Assembly: GCA_000165345.1 (NCBI GenBank)
Contig: CM000429.1
Location: 192,001 to 256,000, forward strand
Direction of reading: 5' to 3'
Length of the DNA: 64,000 nucleotides
This document shows, piece by piece, positions 4,975 through 57,452 of this stretch. The stretch's first letter is position 1, and each line of letters opens with the position of its first letter. The notes under the pieces are model-generated. The model was not told the DNA's origin, ran no database searches, and worked only from the letters and a program-made list of their open reading frames with translations. A program made the translations under genes and the position numbers.

Positions 4975-4997
4975 AAGTTTGGAAATGGGTGGAATTT

Positions 4998-5066
4998 GCG
5001 TCAAGTGCATGCACGAGACGGCGCGCGGTGGTCTGCATGCATGCCGGTAAAAATGGGTACCGTAGG
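4998..5066. promoter_or_regulatory. GC-rich island in the convergent spacer between the dynein 3' end and the phosphatase 3' end. It holds GCATGC at 5007-5012, a GCATGCATGCCGGTA run at 5035-5050, and GGTACC.
   Basis: Seen directly: gcgtcaagtgcatgcacgagacggcgcgcggtggtctgcatgcatgccggtaaaaatgggtaccg. This is a local GC spike in otherwise AT-rich DNA. Confidence 0.4.
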
Positions 5067-5212
5067 TAATAATAATTGTTGATAAGAGAGAAGAAAGGAA
5101 ATAAGAGGTGGAGAATTGTTGTAAATGTTATTATTTTAAATATAAGAATAAAATACTTACATTTTAATTTTAATCTACTTATGTATTATTTGTATGATTG
5201 ATTGATAATTGA

Positions 5213-8260: not shown

Positions 8261-9745
8261 ATGAAGGTGGAGACTACTCCTCAGGAACATAAAGGTAAAA
8301 TCAACTTGGATAAAGGTCAGCAATTGAGAATACTGTCATCTAATAGCCATAATGGCGGTGAACAGGCTTTGAGTCATAAAGTAAGAGAAAAACTAAGTTT
8401 GGAACAAGTTCAAAAGTTAAAAGACTTGTTAGTAAATAGAGAATATAGCCAAAGTCTTGAATTGTTGCTTGAATATTATTATAATGGATCCATTATTGAG
8501 AGTTGGATGGAGAGCTTAATTCCTGAGAAAATAAACTATAAATATGTAAACAATGAGCTCAAAGATTCTCCAGACTTTCACCTATATGATATTTCTGGGA
8601 TCATTATACTTAGCTATATAATCCATTGTTATATATGTAAGAACGATATTTTTGGAGCAATCCAATTAATCAAAAGCTTTGAGAGGGCTTGTTTTATTTT
8701 AAAGATTGGTGAAAATGATAAGAATCACCAATCAGATGTTGTAGATAACGTTAATTCGCATTTTATTTCATGGTGTAACTGTTTTTCAATTCGAGATGTA
8801 TTTCAAGAAAACAAAGGTATCATTAAACACGAATTAAGATCACGAAAGCATTTCCTAAAACTAATTGACATTTACTACTTTTTTAGGATACAAATAATCT
8901 TCTGGAAGTTAGCTATGTACAAAACTTATCATATTCCAAATGCTTCAGTATTCTTGCCTGAAAATAAACATGGCAAAGATCTGAGTGAGAATATTAAGAT
9001 TGAGGACTACTTTGTATTTTTTGACCAAGCAATTGATGAATTGTATGTGATCATTAATGAAATTGATTACATTTTAGAACTTTTCAAAGATTTTGATAAG
9101 CAAGTCACAAATAAATGGCTTCTCAAATATAAAGTAGTTCTTTTCATCCTTGTTGAGGCTTTAACCCTCAGAGACTACTATAATGAGGCTATACAAATTT
9201 TGAATGATTCAATGCAGAAACACTTTCCAGATGATATATCTTTGTATTCTTTGATTGCTAGAATATCCCTCCAATATGGGAACTTTCCTTTGGTTCACTC
9301 TACTCTAAATACTATTGAGGAACGCCTCCAACACCCAAAGCATAATACAAATTTTAATATTGCTCACTATAGATTTACTCTTGGACTATTAAATATGGCT
9401 CAGGATGATCCAGTTACTGCCTCCCTTAATTTCAATACTTCAGCTGCCTTGTATAAAGAACTTGCTATTAACTTTAACAAAGAATACTTACTTCCATGCA
9501 GTACTTCCTTCAACAATCTTTCTGTTGCTTCATTTTATTCAAGTAAGCTTCCCAATTCTGTATCCATTCTTGAGAACCAGATCTACAACCAAAACAACTT
9601 CTTTTTCAATTCCCAGCAACTTTTTGCTACCAACTTTAAGAATCTAAAAACTTTGTATCAGTTTTCATCCGATAAAGATAAGCTAATCAACGAGCTTAAA
9701 AAAATTTCCAAAAGCTCACTTAGATACTCAATCATGATTAATTAA
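8261..9745 (+). CDS. Hypothetical protein, 494 aa, no domain I can recognise.
   Basis: Long ATG-initiated ORF in AT-rich DNA, with promoter motifs just upstream. Composition is helical and hydrophobic-rich. No motif identified. Confidence 0.5.
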   Translation: MKVETTPQEHKGKINLDKGQQLRILSSNSHNGGEQALSHKVREKLSLEQVQKLKDLLVNREYSQSLELLLEYYYNGSIIESWMESLIPEKINYKYVNNELKDSPDFHLYDISGIIILSYIIHCYICKNDIFGAIQLIKSFERACFILKIGENDKNHQSDVVDNVNSHFISWCNCFSIRDVFQENKGIIKHELRSRKHFLKLIDIYYFFRIQIIFWKLAMYKTYHIPNASVFLPENKHGKDLSENIKIEDYFVFFDQAIDELYVIINEIDYILELFKDFDKQVTNKWLLKYKVVLFILVEALTLRDYYNEAIQILNDSMQKHFPDDISLYSLIARISLQYGNFPLVHSTLNTIEERLQHPKHNTNFNIAHYRFTLGLLNMAQDDPVTASLNFNTSAALYKELAINFNKEYLLPCSTSFNNLSVASFYSSKLPNSVSILENQIYNQNNFFFNSQQLFATNFKNLKTLYQFSSDKDKLINELKKISKSSLRYSIMIN

Positions 9746-33205: not shown

Positions 33206-34055
33206 TTTTTTAAAAGAATACTATAAGCAGAATTGGACGATATTTATATTTATTTTCAAATTGTCTTTGAGTTAACCACAAAAATTGGATTAGAACTTAA
33301 AATAAATAATTCCAGTAAAAAAAATCACAGTATACTAAGATTTAACTATGATCTAAAATCCAACAAAGTTTTCGAGTAAATAATTCAATAAAGCAATTTG
33401 AAAATAAAGGCACCCCACAGAATTTTGAATAATTTACTATATATAATTTACAATACAAAATATATGGTAACTTAAGTTAGCGCAAAAAGTTTTAAGATCG
33501 AATTGATTTGATAAAGCAATATATGGTATTAATAATATTGTAAATATACTCAGCAACACCCCCATAAATAAAACAAGTAAAGCCGTTGCCTTTTTTAATG
33601 AGGGGAGTAGCTTCTAATATATATACATATATATAAATATATGTATTCAGTTCCCCTCTCCACCATTCATATTCATAATTAACAAGAAGAAGCCCTTTAC
33701 TGTTTTCTATATATTTCTACTTCCCCTCTTATCCTATTCATTTCTCACCCCCACTAAAATATATTAAATTCAACAGTTAATATATTTTGGTATCCTATAC
33801 GTGTCGCATTTGGGCGGGTTGTCTCGAAGTGCTGGAAAAATGGAGACAATTAAAGAGGTAATGGAGGAAAGTAAAGAAAATATAGAGTAAGGTCTTTTTT
33901 TTCCATTTTGCGTATTTAAGCGCAACGACAAGTTCTTTTAGCAGTGAAAAAACATAAAAAAGCGAGAGGTTTTTTTTTGAATAAAAACCCTGTTGGATAT
34001 TACAAGTTCAAGGTAATTTGTAATATTTTCTTCTTTTTAAAATCGATCAACTAAA

Positions 34056-35273
34056 ATGACAAATAGTGAGCAAAATCCTCCTTCAGAGGAGAACGTACAA
34101 GTAGCTTCAACTGGTGAAATTGAGAGTAATTATGATGAAATTGTGGAGTGTTTTGAAGCTTTAAATTTAGAGGGTGATTTATTGAGAGGTATTTTTGCTT
34201 ATGGTTTTGAAAAACCATCAGCAATTCAACAGAGAGGTATTAAACCGATTTTGGATGGATATGACACAATTGGGCAAGCTCAATCTGGTACTGGTAAGAC
34301 AGCAACATTCGTTATTGCAGCTCTTCAGAAAATTGATTATTCACTAAATGCTTGTCAAGTACTTTTACTTGCTCCAACTCGCGAATTAGCTCAACAGATT
34401 CAAAAGGTAGCTTTGGCATTGGGAGATTATTGTGAACTTAGATGCCATGCTTGCGTTGGTGGTACTTCAGTTAGAGATGATATGAATAAACTGAAGAGTG
34501 GCGTTCATATGGTTGTTGGTACTCCCGGTAGAGTTTTCGATATGCTTGACAAGGGTTATTTGAGAGTTGATAACCTCAAGCTTTTCATATTAGATGAAGC
34601 AGATGAGATGTTAAGCAGAGGTTTCAAGGTTCAAATTCACGATATCTTTAAGAAGCTCCCTCAAGATGTTCAGGTAGCTCTGTTCTCCGCCACAATGCCA
34701 AATGAGATTTTACACCTCACAACTCAGTTTATGAGAGATCCAAAGCGTATTTTAGTAAAACAAGAGGAGCTCACTTTGGAAGGTATTCGTCAGTTTTATG
34801 TTGGCGTTGAAAAGGATGAGTGGAAAATGGATACTTTGATCGACTTATACGAGACTCTTACAATTGTCCAAGCAATTATTTACTGTAACACAAGAAGACG
34901 AGTTGACCAACTCACAAAGCAAATGAGGGAGAGAGACTTTACATGTTCATCTATGCACGGAGATATGGACCAAAAGGACCGTGAAGTCATTATGAGACAA
35001 TTTAGATCAGGCTCATCTCGTGTTCTAATTACAACAGATTTACTAGCAAGAGGTATCGATGTTCAGCAAGTTTCTCTTGTAATTAATTATGATTTGCCTG
35101 TCTCACCAGAAACTTATATTCATAGAATTGGCAGATCCGGTCGTTTCGGTAAGAAAGGTGTTTCAATAAACTTTGTTACTGACGACGACATTGTCTGTTT
35201 GAGAGATATTGAGAGACATTATAATACTCAGATCGAGGAGATGCCAATGGGTATCACTGATATTCTCCAATAA
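34056..35273 (+). CDS. EIF4A: Translation initiation factor eIF4A (DEAD-box helicase).
   Basis: A 405-aa ORF with the Q-motif region [37 protein letters not shown], and [10 protein letters not shown]. Its length and order are typical of eIF4A. Confidence 0.9.
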
Positions 35274-35977
35274 GCCATTATTTACTTAAGTAGTAGTAAA
35301 CTTTACTTGCTTGATTTCTTTATTTCGCTTTAATCTTTCCTCCATATTCTTGATTTCTATATATTCATATAAACTTAAAGTTTAGACCGTCCCAAAACCT
35401 AAGCTTTAGGGAATCTTCAATCCGAAACAAGTGACCGTTTAGAATTCTAAAACCTTGTGAGCTTGCATTTATCCACCACTGCCGCTACCACCACCACCAC
35501 TTCATCTCTTGACTTCTATGCCTTTTCTAAACTCAAGCCGCCATAATTTCCCGCCCCACTAAAAGTACCATACACGTCATTTCTTTATTAATTGCATGTG
35601 GTTACATGCATCCACATAAAAAAGAAAAGCTTGTAATAATTAAGAGCACAGAAGAACAGTAGGTTAATTAATAAAGGTAACAGATCTTCTTTATCCTATT
35701 CTAAAAGCAAAATGTAATTCAAATAATGAGCGAACAAGTATATATTCAATGCATACAAAGAAAAAATCATAATCTACAAGTAGTATTAAATAATTAGAAT
35801 TAATATAAGTAGATAAATAATAAAAAAGTACAATTTAACTATATAAATATAAAGTTTGAATCCACTCTTGTTTGTACTTTGTCTTTCTAGAGAGAAACTG
35901 AGAGGGGATTCAGGTGTTTGCTTTTAACAGTTTGTCGGAAACTAATCAAGTTTTCATCTTCTCTCTGGATTTACCTT

Positions 35978-38900
35978 TTAAATAACCTTTTTCTTCTTAA
36001 TTAAATCTTTCACAATTCTGTACGTGTTTTCAGCTGATGGTCTGAATTCAGGGTCCTGATAAGTCATTGATCTAAGTAAAGGAATCCAAGCATCGTGATT
36101 CTTCATAATAGAAACAGGAACGACCCCTTTGCTTCTAAAACTATCTAGAACATGAATTCTTTCCATGGCTGTAGTGAATCTTGGGCAAAGGAGCTCGAGT
36201 AGGATAAGGGCTGCCGAATATATATCTGCCTTTTCATTACATAAAGCTCCTCCTTCTGGAGCAGTATATCCAGGAGTACCAATTACTTGACCGCGTACAC
36301 TCATTTGGGAGTCCAATCTCGAAAGAGGATTGTTCATCTGAGCTTCCATTTGGCTTTGTCTTCTTCTTTCGTCCATAAATCTATTCAAATCATTGTTAAC
36401 TGCAGCTCCATTTTTTTCAAGTTTGTAGGAAGGAGTAAAAGAGGAGGGTGGTTGAGACATTAATTGAGTATCACCACTAATCACATTACTATTACCATTA
36501 TTAGTCTTAGAGTCACCGTCAAACATTAATCTAGCAAGCCCAAAATCACCAATTTTGATCTGGAGGGAGTCTGGGTTCACAAAAATGTTTTCTGGTTTTA
36601 AATCACGATGAACTATTCCCTTCTCATGAATATCTCTGATACCCTTAATAATTTGTTTGAACATATTAAGCTCAACATCAGTTCCACCATATTCGGTACT
36701 TCTGCTTGCGTCTCCAAGCCAGGATCGTAAAGTTACTCCAATGCAGAGCTCCATTTGTATCATCATAATTACCTCATAAATTGGATCGTTATCTTTACGA
36801 TTTGCTGGAGAAAGATATACAAGAGATCTATGGTGGTGATTATGATTGTTATTATTGAGGCTTTTGCTATTGTCAGTAACGGAAGATATTGAACTGACTT
36901 GTGGGAAGTTTCCAGACGATAATACAAAGAGCTCGTGATTGTTTTGAGTATTAGTAGAAATAGTCTTAGTTCGGTACAATAATCCATTATCATTTGGTTG
37001 ATTGTGAACGTCGTCAATATATATATTTGGTATTTCTTCGATATGTTCTGGAGAAGACTCCTCAAGTTCAGACTTCTCAAGAACATGAGATTCATTCTCA
37101 AAAGCTATAAAGTTTAGATCATGAGAGTCGTTCTCAAACCCATCTTGTAAAGAAGAGTTTGAAGCTAAACTCAGATTTCCAAATCTCTCACTATATCCAA
37201 TACTTAATTTATCATCAGAATGTAAACCAAAACCCTCACTTCCATCAGCGTACCTATTTCCATTTATATGTGAGTCACCATTAAAAGCGGATTCTTCAAT
37301 ACCTTGGTAATTATCTTCGCCATCTAGGTCAAAAGGAGCCCTGCTAAAGCAGGAGTCAGAGTTACTAGACTGGGAACGTTCGTCTTCGTTATAAAAGCCA
37401 AATTCATCATTACGGCGTCCTTTTCGGTTCTTTTGTGTAAACTCTAATGAGAAACGTCCTATACTGTCATTAGAAGAGGTTTCCATTAGAAGATCCTCAT
37501 CTTCTTGTGATAATTCATCAATAATGAAACGTGCTTTGATTTTGTTTGGACCCCGATCCAAAGTCTCCGAGTTATCTGCAAGTTCTTTTTTCGAGTTTTT
37601 CTTTCGTCCTTTTAGACCACTAGAGTCAGATTTACGATTCTTATGCTTCTTTGTTGGTTTCCTAGTCTCAAGAACCTTCGGCTGAATAGAAGAGTGGGAT
37701 GCAGATTTGGAACAGCCGAGACTATCAATCCCATCTACATAATTCTGTAGGGCCTCTGGTTCTTCGCACCACCAAGTATAATATCTGACCACATGCTTAC
37801 TCAAAGTAGTACGGTTTGCAGTAATTTCCCTAAAATAACGAATTCTAGTAATGTCATCGTTTGCTCCAATCCCTAATCTTAGGAACTTGATTGCATAATA
37901 AGTTCCTCTTTCCAGTTTGTGCTCGACTTGATAAACCTGACCGAACCCGCCACTTCCTATAAGCTTCACAATCTCGAAGTTCTTAGAAAATCGGCCATTA
38001 TCAATACATCTTGCAAGCTCACAACGAGGAGGAATATTGTAGAGAGAGGATGACTTAGGTCCACTGGCAGCAGATTTTGGAGTGAATGCATTTTGGCTTT
38101 CCTGGAGATTTGTTGGGGTATTTGCATTGCTTGCATTAAGATTAGCTTGACCGCGCGTTGTGGAGGCTCCAAGATGGGCGGTAATACTTGAGTTGGGCAA
38201 GTCAATTGTGAGCTTGGAGTCATCTTCAAAGCTTGTTCTTGCTCCTAAGTTATCAAAGTGATTGTTGTAATTGGGGCTTTTAGATATAGAATCATTTTTA
38301 TTATTGAGTGCTTTGAAGAAGGCATTCTTTGAGATTCCAATGAAGTTCGTACGCATATCGACCATGGAATAGCTTTTAGAGAGGCGCATGTACTTGTCAC
38401 CTGAGCTACGGGAAGGAGGGAAGTCGGTTTCTGTTTCTTCAGAATTAAAAGTAGTGACATATGAGGAGCCGAGGAATGAATTCCGGAGGTTTCCGCTCTG
38501 TTGTTGATTGTTTACACTTGCAGTATGTTTTCGTTTAGAGAGTAGTACGAAGAGCAGGATTACGTTGACTATGAAAAGTATTATTCCAGTGGTCATTGCG
38601 AGGTGATTTCTGTGATACAGAATAGAAAGGGAAGATAGGATAGAATTGGAGCCATTCTCTGACTCTAACTCGGGTGGTTTAGGAGATTCTGAGTTGGTTC
38701 CTAAGCCTACAGCTTCCGTCTGGTTGTGTAAGTTTTGCAGAGTTACCTCTTCTTCAGAAGTTTCAGTCTTATTGCCTGGGAGAGGAAGCATAGGTCTGGG
38801 AACAGGCCTGTTTGAGTTAATAACCATAGGAGTAAGGCCTTTGAGCTTGCTACCAATAAGATGACTGATCTCAGAATTTACAGGCTTAGATTTGCTATGA

Positions 38901-39976
38901 GCAAAGTCATCTAGCAAAATGTTGTTGTTAGTTCCAATTAGAGGACCAACAGCAGAGTTGGAGTAGTTACGAAGACGGCTGACATGCACCTGCTCAATAT
39001 AGTAGAAGTTAGAAGGGAAATATGGGAGAGATAACCCCTCTTTAAGAATAAAGACTTTGGAAATAATACTGTTAAATCCCAATGAAATATTTTTCAAGTA
39101 TAGAGAATTTCGTGAAGAACCAAAGAAGATAGGTATTTCTCGATCTGCTTGACCAGACTCCAATAGATGAACATTCTGGAGGCTTTGAGAATATTTGTTA
39201 TAGTTAATTCCATTAACATCTGAGTATCTGATATCCCATTCTAACTTGTTTGTGGGGATGTTTAGGGCAAGAATCTTCCAAGTAGTAACTCCAATTGCAA
39301 TGCTAACTTGAATTTTTGGATTAAGGGATGCCTCTTGATCATAAGCTTCGCATTGTTGGGACGAGGCAGAGTTTGAAAGAATTCTTCCAGTAAATAGATC
39401 AATAGCTAGGACATCAGATGTTCTGGAACCAGTAAGATATAATCCAGGAAAGAGGGAGGAGTGGAACGGACACCTTTCGACTAGATCTCCGATACTGATA
39501 CCCTCTATTGGTATAACTCCTCCTGGTAAAACTGATTTTTCAGAAAAGATATTTTCATAGGTGTTTTGGGTATTATGGAAACCTTGAGTGCTTTCAGAAG
39601 ATGTTCCAAAAAAAATCTTTCCTTGAAAAGAACAGTATAAACGAGTTGATTTAATGCTTGATTCATCGTTCCCATGGTCATAAAAGACCCTACTAGGATA
39701 AAATGTACCTTCCTCAAGGATCTTCCTTTTCCACAAGATCTTTCCATTCTCTCCAATTGACCATAAAGTACCATCCACTGTCAATACAAAGTAGATTTCT
39801 GGTAGGCTAATTCTACTAGACTCACTATTTCTGCTTGGCAAATCCAGATCACCAGCCTTGACAAGCAAGGAAAAAAATAGCTGAAAAATTAGCACTACTA
39901 ATCCCCATTTAACTAGCATTCCCTTCGTTCCTGCATCTCTATATGAGACCTGCCAAATTCTCTTTCTACCTTTCAT
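35978..39976 (-). CDS. Membrane-anchored eIF2alpha-kinase-like protein kinase with PERK/PEK-type architecture: signal anchor, luminal WD/PQQ-like domain, TM helix, and a split kinase domain with large inserts.
   Basis: The N-terminal hydrophobic segment is followed by repeats (TVDGTLWSIGENGKILWKRK). There is an internal TM (MTTGIILFIVNVILLFVLL). Kinase subdomains I-II (LIGSGGFGQVY, YAIKFL) are separated by a ~350-aa S/N/D-rich insert from subdomains VIb-VIII (HRDLKPENIFV, IGDFGLAR, GTPGYTAPE). The family call rests on the architecture. Confidence 0.62.
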   Translation of the reverse strand: MKGRKRIWQVSYRDAGTKGMLVKWGLVVLIFQLFFSLLVKAGDLDLPSRNSESSRISLPEIYFVLTVDGTLWSIGENGKILWKRKILEEGTFYPSRVFYDHGNDESSIKSTRLYCSFQGKIFFGTSSESTQGFHNTQNTYENIFSEKSVLPGGVIPIEGISIGDLVERCPFHSSLFPGLYLTGSRTSDVLAIDLFTGRILSNSASSQQCEAYDQEASLNPKIQVSIAIGVTTWKILALNIPTNKLEWDIRYSDVNGINYNKYSQSLQNVHLLESGQADREIPIFFGSSRNSLYLKNISLGFNSIISKVFILKEGLSLPYFPSNFYYIEQVHVSRLRNYSNSAVGPLIGTNNNILLDDFAHSKSKPVNSEISHLIGSKLKGLTPMVINSNRPVPRPMLPLPGNKTETSEEEVTLQNLHNQTEAVGLGTNSESPKPPELESENGSNSILSSLSILYHRNHLAMTTGIILFIVNVILLFVLLSKRKHTASVNNQQQSGNLRNSFLGSSYVTTFNSEETETDFPPSRSSGDKYMRLSKSYSMVDMRTNFIGISKNAFFKALNNKNDSISKSPNYNNHFDNLGARTSFEDDSKLTIDLPNSSITAHLGASTTRGQANLNASNANTPTNLQESQNAFTPKSAASGPKSSSLYNIPPRCELARCIDNGRFSKNFEIVKLIGSGGFGQVYQVEHKLERGTYYAIKFLRLGIGANDDITRIRYFREITANRTTLSKHVVRYYTWWCEEPEALQNYVDGIDSLGCSKSASHSSIQPKVLETRKPTKKHKNRKSDSSGLKGRKKNSKKELADNSETLDRGPNKIKARFIIDELSQEDEDLLMETSSNDSIGRFSLEFTQKNRKGRRNDEFGFYNEDERSQSSNSDSCFSRAPFDLDGEDNYQGIEESAFNGDSHINGNRYADGSEGFGLHSDDKLSIGYSERFGNLSLASNSSLQDGFENDSHDLNFIAFENESHVLEKSELEESSPEHIEEIPNIYIDDVHNQPNDNGLLYRTKTISTNTQNNHELFVLSSGNFPQVSSISSVTDNSKSLNNNNHNHHHRSLVYLSPANRKDNDPIYEVIMMIQMELCIGVTLRSWLGDASRSTEYGGTDVELNMFKQIIKGIRDIHEKGIVHRDLKPENIFVNPDSLQIKIGDFGLARLMFDGDSKTNNGNSNVISGDTQLMSQPPSSFTPSYKLEKNGAAVNNDLNRFMDERRRQSQMEAQMNNPLSRLDSQMSVRGQVIGTPGYTAPEGGALCNEKADIYSAALILLELLCPRFTTAMERIHVLDSFRSKGVVPVSIMKNHDAWIPLLRSMTYQDPEFRPSAENTYRIVKDLIKKKKVI

Positions 39977-41158: not shown

Positions 41159-41232
41159 GCTGTCTTAGCTCAGCACGGTAGAGCGCCAGCCTTTTAAGCT
41201 GGTGGTCATGGGTTCGATCCCCATAGACAGCG
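41159..41232 (+). tRNA. tRNA-Lys (anticodon TTT/UUU), 74 nt. A T5 tract immediately 3' fits a Pol III terminator.
   Basis: I folded it by hand as a cloverleaf: acceptor GCTGTCT/AGACAGC, D-arm GCTC..GAGC, anticodon stem CCAGC/GCTGG with loop CTTTTAA, T-arm ATGGG-TTCGATC-CCCAT, discriminator G, then TTTTT. Confidence 0.85.
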
Positions 41233-42268
41233 TTTTTGTCCAACAGATCGGTGTTTCCCGCCTTGTCTTTTGAAATCATTTTGTTAAATAGCAAATTAAT
41301 ATTAATAAGTTAGAGGTAATACAAATTAATAGTCTCTGTTGACAAACTGGAAAGCCAATTTTATTCAATTTTTTTTTTTTAAATATATTAATTTTCCCCT
41401 CTATAAATTTTTAGCTATTTAAGCTAAGAAAAAAATTTTGTATAAAAAGTTAAGTACATTAGTGTGAATAGTTTTAGGTTTTGGATTTTTTTTAGAACCT
41501 TCATAAAGTCTCTTATAAGGAAAATATCAGCAGGTTCTTGACAAAAAGAGAAAATAAGGACAGAAGTAGATAATTTTTTATTTGGGCAAAAAAGTGATTA
41601 TTGAAATTAGTATTGATGTTATTACATGTACTTTAACTTGCCCCCCTCATAAATAAAGTAGTTTGCAAAATAATTACACACTAAAATTAATAGTAAATTT
41701 GTGCGAGTGCAAATTATGGATTAAGTTCATACTTGCTATAGAAAATAATTTTTTTAAGTAAATAATTCAGTATTTGCTATAATATATTCCCATTTCATGG
41801 GAATTATTAAATATAAATTATTCATATATTTTTAAGTTTGTGAAAAATATTTACGTATATAATTATTTTTACCCTCGCAAGTTTCTCCACCTGCATGGCT
41901 TGTCGGGTTTGATATTTAGGCGGTACAATCCTCTCTGAATAAACGGAAGAAAAATATTCCCCTTTTTGGACTTTTCACATTTTCTGGAATTAGAGAGGAA
42001 AATAAAAATAAAAATAAAAATAAAAAAACAAAAATTAATTCAAAGACGATTGGAAATAGATTTATTAAATATCAACTTATTTGAAGCATTTTTTTCAAGT
42101 ATTTTAGAAACAGTTGGTATTAATTCAAGTATTTGCCAGACATTATATAACTTCAAAACTTGAATATAAAATAATATTCTCTTTTTATTTGATATAAAAT
42201 AAAAAAGACTTAAATTAATAGCAAATATAGATTTTTTTTTTTGAATACAGAAATTAATAATATTCATA

Positions 42269-49893: not shown

Positions 49894-49925
49894 TTCACAT
49901 AGCTTGTTTTAATCCCAAATCTACC

Positions 49926-49946
49926 TGCATGCATGCATGCATGCGG
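49926..49946. repeat. Tandem (GCAT)5 / overlapping GCATGC x4, in the convergent spacer between the 48448(+) and 50137(-) genes.
   Basis: cctgcatgcatgcatgcatgcggtac. Confidence 0.8.
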
Positions 49947-50136
49947 TACAAAGTAGTAATAATACTAGTTATTTAAGTTTACATTTAAAATTTTTGTAAA
50001 AAGTACAATAAGAAATAGTTTTGGTTTTTATTAACAAAACATTAAGCTAATATTAACATAAAAGAGTACTATTGGAAATGGTGGTAATAAGCAGAACTTC
50101 CATCTTTTCTCCAATTGAACAATTAGCACAAAGATC

Positions 50137-56294: not shown

Positions 56295-56812
56295 TAAATG
56301 ATATAAAAGATAATATAATTACTTTATTATTACAAAAGATTCAAAGGTAATGAAAATAATGTCATTAAATAAAGCATATTTATAGGATTAGTAATAGTTG
56401 TACTATGGTAAAGTAATCATATTATAATTTATTATTTTATGAGTAAATAAAGCATATGATGATTTTGGTAAGTGAGTGTGTATAATATCATAGAAGAATA
56501 TTTTGAAGAAAATCAGTTTTATTGTAAAAGATATAAATGAATATTGTCATTATTATTAATATAATAAAAACAAATAATTATATTATTACCAAATAACCAT
56601 ACAAATGAACTTATTTCTTTCCTATTTAACATTAATTTATTTATTTATTCAAAAACAAAAGGAAAAGAAAAAATAAATAATAAACAAATTTATTTAATAA
56701 ATTCCCTTATAATATACCTTTTCTCTATTTGGCAAGAAAAAAAGTGAGTTGAAATAATTATATTTTAATAATTTAAAGTTTGAAAGCAATCCCATATTCA
56801 AATATACGTGGT

Positions 56813-56900
56813 GCCGGTATATAAAAATTGACTAGGATGACATTTTTATTTGGCGCATGTTAGTGCATGCACTTACACATGCACTGTTTTGGCGGGAAAT
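56813..56900. promoter_or_regulatory. Promoter-like cluster: TGCCGGTATATAAAAATT (a CCGGTAT element plus a TATA-like box), GCATGCAC x2 and an E2F-like TTTTGGCGGGAAAT. It lies in the convergent spacer between the RING gene 3' end and the ABCE1 3' end.
   Basis: ggtgccggtatataaaaattgactaggatgacatttttatttggcgcatgttagtgcatgcacttacacatgcactgttttggcgggaaatctgggacgg. Confidence 0.45.
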
Positions 56901-57452
56901 CTGGGACGGTAAGTGATTTGTTTATAGAAAATAAAATTATTAGAGTTATAGTCAAGAGGAAGTGATAGTGAATAAGTAGATGTAAATTTAAGAGAGAGAG
57001 AGAGAGAACGAGTGGATTCAGAGTAAATGAAGGTAAATTTTTCAAGAATTGATCAGAAAAAAAAAGAAACAAGTAAGAGTAAATCAATGGAAAATGAGGG
57101 GTGGTATGAAAGAACTAAGGTAGTGATAGAGAAGAGGTATGTTTAAGGAATTTATACAATAAATAGGCGAATAGGGAAAATGTTCGTGTATTCAAGGCGG
57201 CAAAGCCACACTTGTTTAGAATTGATTCTCTTAGACTTTTTGAGTTTATGTGAATAATTTTACTTCTGTATGACCTAAAATGATTATATTATTGTTTAAC
57301 AATATATAAAAAAAGTTTGTAAAAAAAAAGAATGACGTATTAAAATTATATAATTATTATAAAGGAAGCGAAAGAATCAAGTTAAGAATGTTTCTTGGCT
57401 TGTTTGTATTAAGGATTTGTGAGGTTTTTTCTTTTTTTTTTTCTCTTGATAT

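Follow-up and report, generated by a model that had tools for sequence, protein, structure and literature searches.

The window analysed here is a 64,000-nt stretch of Cryptosporidium parvum chromosome 1 (GenBank assembly GCA_000165345.1, contig CM000429.1, positions 192,001 to 256,000), and all coordinates refer to it. It contains a 704-bp spacer in which two convergent genes end: eIF4A (cgd1_880), whose open reading frame (ORF) occupies 34056–35273 on the plus strand, and cgd1_890, whose ORF occupies 35978–39976 on the minus strand and which is described as the orthologue of PfPK4, meaning a PK4/PERK-like eIF2-alpha kinase. The spacer carries a conserved island, the core of which consists of a CACGTCATTT box and a dyad of CCACATGCA/GCATG ApiAP2-type boxes (35573–35617). 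We regard the chances as about even that this conserved island is of the promoter type and serves non-coding or antisense transcription missing from the annotation. The island itself is most likely an ordinary promoter of the C. parvum type and not a gene product. This reading follows from the match of its motifs to those upstream of long non-coding RNAs (lncRNAs), from other gene-less spacers that carry the same clusters, from the eIF4A promoter as an internal control, and from the dyad.

Conservation and motif content of the spacer

The spacers of C. parvum, C. hominis, C. meleagridis, chipmunk genotype I, C. ubiquitum, C. canis, C. felis, C. bovis, and the contig L016 (Logan SRR31860986) were compared. 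The convergent arrangement of eIF4A and the kinase is kept in all of them, and the orthologous spacers are always long (443–867 bp as annotated). Conservation scores, taken from a six-species alignment profile, show three peaks, namely the eIF4A 3′ untranslated region (UTR), the island (35564–35613), and an AT-rich block (35794–35863). The island scores 0.63–0.70, compared with 0.02–0.3 for the 200 bp on its left. Its GCATG/CCACAT boxes are kept in seven species, with a perfect GGATGCATGCA in several relatives, and CACGT[CA]A stands at the equivalent place in C. parvum, C. hominis, C. meleagridis, chipmunk genotype I, C. ubiquitum, C. canis, and L016. In the seven species with both elements, 209–276 bp separate the CACGT box from the TTAACTATA block on its right. 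Over its whole length, the spacer is 88% identical to that of C. meleagridis and 75% to that of C. ubiquitum. These values are close to the 92% and 79% of the spacer upstream of eIF4A, that is, its promoter spacer, which fits regulatory DNA.

From left to right, the spacer is composed as follows:

35274–35329, plus strand: 3′ UTR of eIF4A (cgd1_880), very conserved, including AAGTAGTAGTAAAC and ending together with a transcript-like contig (see below)
35473–35500, no strand assigned: (CCA)-rich run CCACCACTGCCGCTACCACCACCACCAC, not conserved
35543–35559, minus strand: E2F-like site GTGGGGCGGGAAATTAT (plus-strand letters ATAATTTCCCGCCCCAC)
35573–35582, plus strand: CACGTCATTT box (core ACGT), forming the conserved left border of the regulatory island
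35591–35617, no strand assigned: ApiAP2-type box dyad ATTGCATGTGGTTACATGCATCCACAT
35618–35793, plus strand: AT-rich body of the proposed non-coding unit, moderately conserved (0.3–0.56), with no ORF and a consensus fold of −1.92 kcal/mol
35630–35641, plus strand: CTTGTAATAATT, 28 nt past the last GCATG, which may be a start-proximal element (weakly supported)
35794–35863, no strand assigned: the most conserved block, AATTAGAATTAATATAAGTAGATAAA...ACAATTTAACTATATAAATATAA (score 0.73–0.94)
35855–35977, minus strand: probable 3′ UTR of the kinase (cgd1_890), near-invariant between C. parvum and C. meleagridis

The motifs that drew attention to the spacer in the initial annotation are real, and each lies within one base of where it had been placed (35544–35560 for the E2F-like site and 35591–35616 for the boxes). 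The two boxes of the dyad are TGCATGTGG, the reverse complement of CCACATGCA, and CATGCATCCACAT. They are flanked by a T-rich and an A-rich arm, so that an inverted repeat extends over 35580–35598 and 35609–35627. The E2F-like core GGCGGGAAA is located at 35547–35555 on the minus strand, and TTTCCCGC at 35548–35555 matches the E2F consensus TTTSSCGC. Both motif classes are enriched across the window. TGCATG occurs 96 times against 24 expected, and GGCGGGAAA with at most one mismatch 15 times against 3.4 expected; none of 100 shuffles reaches either count. CCACATGCA with at most one mismatch is found 19 times against 6.8 expected. The E2F and GCATGC-type words are enriched in the 5′ intergenic regions of the window. 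The word of the CACGTCATTT box is not enriched in the window (four hits against 3.1 expected).

The frame of the locus stands as first described: eIF4A ends at 35273 and the kinase at 35978, and no gene between them is annotated in the public assemblies fetched. The spacer is base-for-base identical in GCA_031892065.1, and several public assemblies of C. parvum, C. hominis, and C. meleagridis contain the eIF4A ORF without any change. The annotated kinase stop is correct as well, because the C-termini agree across seven species. The spacer had been called unusually long, which is fair in relative terms: it has about three times the length of four other convergent spacers of the window (148, 238, 243, and 252 bp), and two further ones measure 1140 bp (this one holds a spliced gene) and 1158 bp.

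Related promoters and the proposed transcript

The motif vocabulary of the island is that of published C. parvum lncRNA promoters. Motifs were reported within 100 bp upstream of 190 of 396 lncRNAs (Li et al. 2021, PMC7840661), including E2F/DP1, the ApiAP2_1 motif BGCATGCAH, motif 2 (ANTTGCATGYA), and motif 5 (TTGTCCACATK). The boxes of the island match motifs 2 and 5, and the motifs in the spacer match published instances such as TATTGCATGTG and GGATGCATGAG (PMC7840661). Antisense lncRNAs make up 92% of the 396, with a bias toward the sense gene's 3′ end, and many of the upstream regions in the set resemble bidirectional promoters (PMC7840661). The island shares with these regions the setting in a compact genome past a protein gene's 3′ end, the lack of coding potential, and palindromic motifs that suggest bidirectional firing. 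It differs from them in three respects. The published regions have transcripts, whereas the island is known from sequence alone; it is situated about 360 bp from the kinase stop and not at the end of a coding sequence (CDS); and a second, stronger conserved block, the AT-rich one, follows downstream in the spacer.

E2F/DP1 and ApiAP2 GCATGC motifs are also described for the promoters of Cryptosporidium protein genes (Oberstaller et al. 2013, as cited in PMC7840661; bioRxiv 10.1101/2025.01.17.633476). The motif words are the same as in the island, and the promoter of eIF4A offers an example within the window by containing ACGTGT (33799) and TTTGGGCGGG (33809–33818). The island differs in that no protein gene lies downstream in either direction, and in that its E2F site is lineage-specific, the ApiAP2-type boxes being the conserved part.

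The eIF4A gene provides the control for this comparison. A transcript-like Logan contig of 1440 nt (ERR11479899) equals window positions 33890–35329 exactly, which implies an eIF4A start at 33890 and an mRNA end at 35329. The ACGTGT and TTTGGGCGGG words are thus placed about 75–90 nt upstream of the implied start, and the implied mRNA end falls about 245 bp short of the island. The contig resembles a full eIF4A mRNA with a 5′ UTR of 166 nt and a 3′ UTR of 56 nt.

Promoter motifs in a convergent spacer had been taken as an anomaly at this locus, a premise that is weakened by the rest of the window. The 238-bp (4975–5212) and 243-bp (49894–50136) convergent spacers carry GCATG and E2F-type clusters while leaving no room for a gene, so that promoter motifs with no gene to serve are recurrent and not an oddity of one place. 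In total, such clusters are found in three of the five convergent spacers of the window without a known gene. In the 238-bp spacer, the cluster reads TGCATGCA..GGCGCGCG..TGCATGCATGC (5006–5043), and in the 243-bp spacer, a (TGCA)n run is present at 49926–49943; both are located just past the stop of the plus-strand gene, and GTAATAAT follows each of these clusters 16–26 nt later.

Promoter-like regions between gene ends have counterparts elsewhere. In yeast and other compact genomes, nucleosome-free regions where convergent genes have their 3′ ends give rise to non-coding and antisense transcription. The island resembles these regions in its place between gene ends, in its dyad symmetry, and in the would-be antisense RNAs over 3′ ends. 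The likeness is an analogy only, and the factors that would act here (ApiAP2, E2F) are different ones. Among protists, bidirectional promoters of Giardia are mentioned by way of citation in PMC7840661.

We infer the existence of a transcript, as well as its start, direction, and end, along the following lines. ApiAP2 factors, joined in the parvum lineage by E2F/DP1, would putatively bind the island, which lies just past the end of the eIF4A mRNA (about 35329). The E2F-like site (35547–35555) was gained only in the C. parvum/C. hominis/C. meleagridis lineage. The bound factors would make RNA polymerase II transcribe a non-coding RNA that is missing from the annotation, the likeliest direction being rightward on the plus strand, from a start near 35625–35660. 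This RNA would run through the AT-rich DNA of 35618–35793 up to the TATA-like/AT-rich block (35794–35863) and possibly extend further, as an antisense lncRNA entering the kinase gene at its 3′ end. With its dyad symmetry, the island may fire leftward against eIF4A as well.

The plus strand is mildly favoured because the island has conserved sequence of conserved length on its right and none on its left, and because GTAATAAT is situated 28 nt downstream of the GCATG boxes. This word, which may be a start-proximal promoter element, is found 16–67 nt downstream of GCATG in 6 of its 12 intergenic occurrences, compared with 13.5% expected (post hoc binomial p = 0.003). The occurrences include two other convergent spacers and the upstream regions of two minus-strand genes; examples near GCATG are window positions 5066, 32395, 35633, 49956, 53113, and 63574. 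The plus strand is also favoured by a weak AU-rich hairpin (35773–35815) that is maintained by G–U wobble changes on this strand only, which is a hint and not evidence.

The AT-rich block lies in the right half of the spacer. Its TTAACTATA word is present in eight of the nine species, C. felis included, and is unique in the window at up to two mismatches. A perfect TATA-like TATATAAATA (35841–35850) is located inside the block. On the minus strand, the block contains three AUUUA words. The block could be a core promoter or a 3′-end signal of the plus-strand RNA, or a 3′-end or AU-rich element of the kinase mRNA.

A more specific version of the proposal is unlikely in our estimation. According to it, the island and the AT-rich block would form an unannotated non-coding RNA gene conserved in the genus (intestinal clade) and placed between two genes of translation control, the plus-strand RNA of which is antisense to the kinase 3′ UTR and tunes the kinase, with the gain of the E2F site coupling it to the cell cycle or to early development.

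Competing explanations

A number of results weigh against a promoter-type island that starts a transcript. The part of the spacer that is conserved best is the AT-rich block, which could equally well be a signal of the kinase mRNA. C. felis and C. bovis lack the island. The E2F-like site, which had been put first among the motifs, turned out to be the least conserved element: with a score of 0.22, it is kept only in C. parvum, C. hominis (TTCCCCGCC), and C. meleagridis (CTTCCCGCC) and is absent at the orthologous position of chipmunk genotype, C. ubiquitum, C. canis, C. felis, and C. bovis. The candidate start-proximal word has the form GCAATAAT in C. hominis, and a deletion removes it in C. 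meleagridis. The spacer and the adjacent antisense regions show no match in the part of the Li et al. 2021 lncRNA sequences that was compared, from which Cp_lnc_1 and Cp_lnc_20, for example, are absent. Finally, the direction of transcription is something that we only infer, the ApiAP2 and E2F motifs being palindromic or orientation-free.

The (CCA)-rich run is probably without function. It scores 0.02–0.16, belongs to unalignable DNA, falls within a 62-bp deletion of C. meleagridis, and is absent from chipmunk genotype, C. ubiquitum, and C. canis. From the promoter-like architecture that had been proposed, the E2F site and the (CCA)n run have to be removed as conserved parts, whereas the GCATG/CCACAT part stands as a real phylogenetic footprint of the lncRNA-promoter motif class in seven species. 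Because this footprint is real and C. parvum lncRNAs have its motif class upstream, an unannotated transcript, non-coding or antisense, is still the best reading, and an lncRNA or antisense transcript is plausible.

The main contender dispenses with an independent transcript and takes the conserved blocks as 3′-UTR and 3′-end-formation elements of the two convergent mRNAs; we hold it to be doubtful, yet a serious possibility. On this view, the kinase 3′ UTR might have a length of about 150–350 nt, with the AU-rich block (three AUUUA, UAUAUA) controlling cleavage, polyadenylation, or stability, and the GCATG island might mark the unit, terminate it, or serve eIF4A or the kinase as a distal regulatory element or a boundary. 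The spacing of the AT-rich block speaks in favour of this: its distance to the kinase stop is 121–145 bp in six of the eight species having the block (62 bp in C. felis and 249 bp in L016). Likewise, the near-invariance of 35855–35977 between C. parvum and C. meleagridis is UTR-like, the 3′ flank of eIF4A has a loosely similar TATATA element in sense orientation, and GCATG clusters also occur 30–60 nt past stop codons in two short convergent spacers. On the other side, the GCATG, CCACAT, and E2F words are documented as promoter DNA motifs in the genus (PMC7840661), and the transcript-like eIF4A contig stops well before the island. Nor does the AT-rich block behave as a general 3′ signal: among 25 gene 3′ flanks, all but one score 14–18 of 27, compared with a background of 13–18, and the only flank above background is that of the 57453 gene (19 of 27). 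AAGTAG/TAGTAG words were tried as a 3′-end signal and are not enriched in sense 3′ flanks.

Alternatively, the island might drive only a minus-strand RNA that is antisense to eIF4A and starts near 35470–35540, the right side of the spacer then being the kinase 3′ UTR plus filler. The island is only 100–130 nt away from the eIF4A stop in C. ubiquitum, C. canis, and L016, a typical start position of antisense lncRNAs (PMC7840661). Moreover, the minus strand shows the order ACGTG...GGGCGGG, as does the eIF4A promoter 75–90 nt upstream of the eIF4A start. What makes this version quite improbable is that no part of the spacer is less conserved than the start region that it requires (35380–35553), some of which is deleted in C. 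meleagridis, that the GGGCGGG half is limited to the parvum lineage, and that the conserved 209–276 bp spacing to the AT-rich block would be left unexplained.

The spacer is not protein-coding. A small spliced gene had been considered in the initial annotation, and such genes do occur nearby, namely a 73-aa ubiquitin-like gene and an 81-aa gene (introns reconstructed). In the C. parvum spacer, however, no ORF of at least 30 aa exists in any of the six frames. Substitutions between C. parvum and C. meleagridis are distributed 24/24/24 over the codon phases, compared with 1/0/37 for the eIF4A CDS and 44/5/6 for the kinase CDS, and the indels of 62, 24, 3, 3, 2, 2, 1, 1, and 1 nt between the two species are not in general multiples of three. 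On the minus strand, C. hominis has an ATG ORF of 61 aa and C. meleagridis one of 63 aa; the two start from a common ATG, but continue in different frames past a 1-nt indel, and the hominis frame is stopped in C. parvum. A six-frame tblastn against seven orthologous spacers yielded nothing above nucleotide-level identity. Mini-exon models using GT 35633 and AG 35930 were rejected since the candidate first exons switch phase between species. These dinucleotides are kept in several species, but C. hominis has GC in place of the GT, and C. meleagridis has lost it by deletion; the introns of neighbouring genes use GTAAGT, GTGAGT, or GTAAGA (reconstructed). On the sequence evidence, it is thus scarcely conceivable that a small, possibly spliced protein-coding gene has been missed here by every annotation.

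A small structured RNA (small nucleolar RNA (snoRNA), small nuclear RNA (snRNA)-like, or is-ncRNA), with the TATA-like block as its promoter or the hairpins as its body, is very unlikely, and no recognisable structured RNA is present in the spacer. The covariance-model scan proposed for snRNAs and snoRNAs was run with Rfam over the whole window at gathering thresholds and over the spacer at E up to 10. In the spacer, it gave five chance-level matches to unrelated families (E = 3.6–9.7), the best being snoR64a with 17.7 bits against a gathering score of 45, and no match to snRNA, RNase P, MRP, or SRP families even at this E. RNAalifold consensus folds reach −6.97 kcal/mol (35825–35985), with an unfavourable covariation term, and −1.92 kcal/mol (35618–35860), and single-sequence folds with z-scores of −0.74 and 0.17 are no better than shuffles. 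In favour of a structured RNA are the perfect TATA-like element kept in eight of nine species and a hairpin within the probable kinase 3′ UTR (35857–35868 paired with 35901–35912, GAATCCACTCT and AGAGGGGATTC). The hairpin shows one compensatory C–G to A–U change in C. meleagridis and is not kept in C. canis. In addition, 43 intergenic novel is-ncRNAs were reported for C. parvum (PMC9465071). Compared with the is-ncRNAs and snoRNAs of that study (Li et al. 2022, PMC9465071), a unit of 35625–35860 would be alike in being intergenic, genus-conserved, and 70–500 nt long, and differs by lacking conserved secondary structure and conserved box motifs.

The models built by hand for particular classes fail because their boxes or stems are not conserved. 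For a C/D box snoRNA, the C. parvum minus strand offers a C-box-like AAGAUGA and a D-box CUGA, together with a terminal stem GAGAG/CUCUC; in place of CUGA, chipmunk genotype has UUGG and C. ubiquitum CAGA, and the C-like, UGAUGA-like box is lost in C. ubiquitum. For an H/ACA snoRNA, an ACA (35928–35930) stands 16 nt after the hairpin of 35857–35912, but the lower stem (UAAAG/CUUUUA) is not maintained in C. ubiquitum or C. canis, and the hinge measures about 35 nt. An RNA polymerase III gene (TATA plus T-run, or B box) was rejected as the B-box-like GTTTGAATCC breaks invariant positions in relatives. Defining elements are likewise not conserved for a U5-like loop, RNase MRP, or a SECIS-like K-turn, all judged by hand on alignments. 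A telomerase-template reading of AAACCTAA (35396–35403) is not conserved in C. meleagridis, and the stem AAGTACAA/TTGTACTT (35827–35834 and 35873–35880) has uncompensated changes in C. hominis, chipmunk genotype, and C. ubiquitum.

If a transcript starts at the island, it would add one more conserved lncRNA or antisense unit to a parasite in which about 10% of mRNAs already have antisense partners. This unit would face a stress-response eIF2-alpha kinase and adjoin eIF4A. The CpBGF annotation (GCA_035232765.1) comprises 766 lncRNAs and UTRs from Iso-Seq. A promoter-type island would also offer a small, concrete element (35573–35617) for asking whether antisense transcription regulates a translational-control kinase. 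The neighbouring eIF4A is a current drug target (PMC12313074). Should no transcript start at the island, the blocks would be ordinary 3′-end signals. The occurrence of gene-less promoter motifs suggests a systematic feature of C. parvum gene ends and not an anomaly of one locus.

Neighbouring features

The eIF4A 3′ UTR has a conservation of 0.8–0.93 in the six-species profile (peak 35274–35320) and is recognisable even in C. felis. Its first ~35 nt (35274–35306), TTATTTACTTAAGTAGTAGTAAAC, are near-invariant across the genus including C. felis, which suggests a conserved 3′-UTR regulatory or processing element for eIF4A.

The C. felis spacer measures 514 bp as annotated and really about 330 bp, because the eIF4A model is truncated. 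This model (L014, GCA_014529505.1; region concerned, 8290–8474) is cut off at 304 aa, and the true end of the ORF (...ITDILQ, then stop) falls within annotated intergenic DNA; the real C. felis spacer is GC-rich. L016 codes for a Cryptosporidium kinase 68% identical to that of C. parvum. L016 and C. canis have extra spacer blocks in common, for example GACTGGYAGKATT..CGGTGRTT, and in L016, a 30-bp insertion with GGGCGGG splits the TTTAACTATATA/TATATAAC block.

On the kinase side, an intron in the 3′ UTR was considered on account of a GTAAAT just after the stop and TTTCTCTCTAG further on; its support consists of dinucleotides only, and the C-terminus is the same in seven species. Paralogy of the AT-rich block with 57295–57319 was rejected as well, since a full comparison of both spacers is no better than controls (AT-rich background).

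The 1158-bp convergent spacer (56295–57452), to which the latter segment belongs, contains GTGCATGCA..ACATGCA..TTTGGCGGGAAA at 56864–56899 and, further on, the canonical 5′-splice-site-like GGTAAGTG and a (GA)n run (56990–57008). It may hide an unannotated spliced gene or non-coding RNA. The sole Rfam hit of the window at gathering thresholds is a tRNA-Lys(UUU) (41159–41232), and an exact GGCGGGAAA on the minus strand (41254–41262) is located 22 nt downstream of it.

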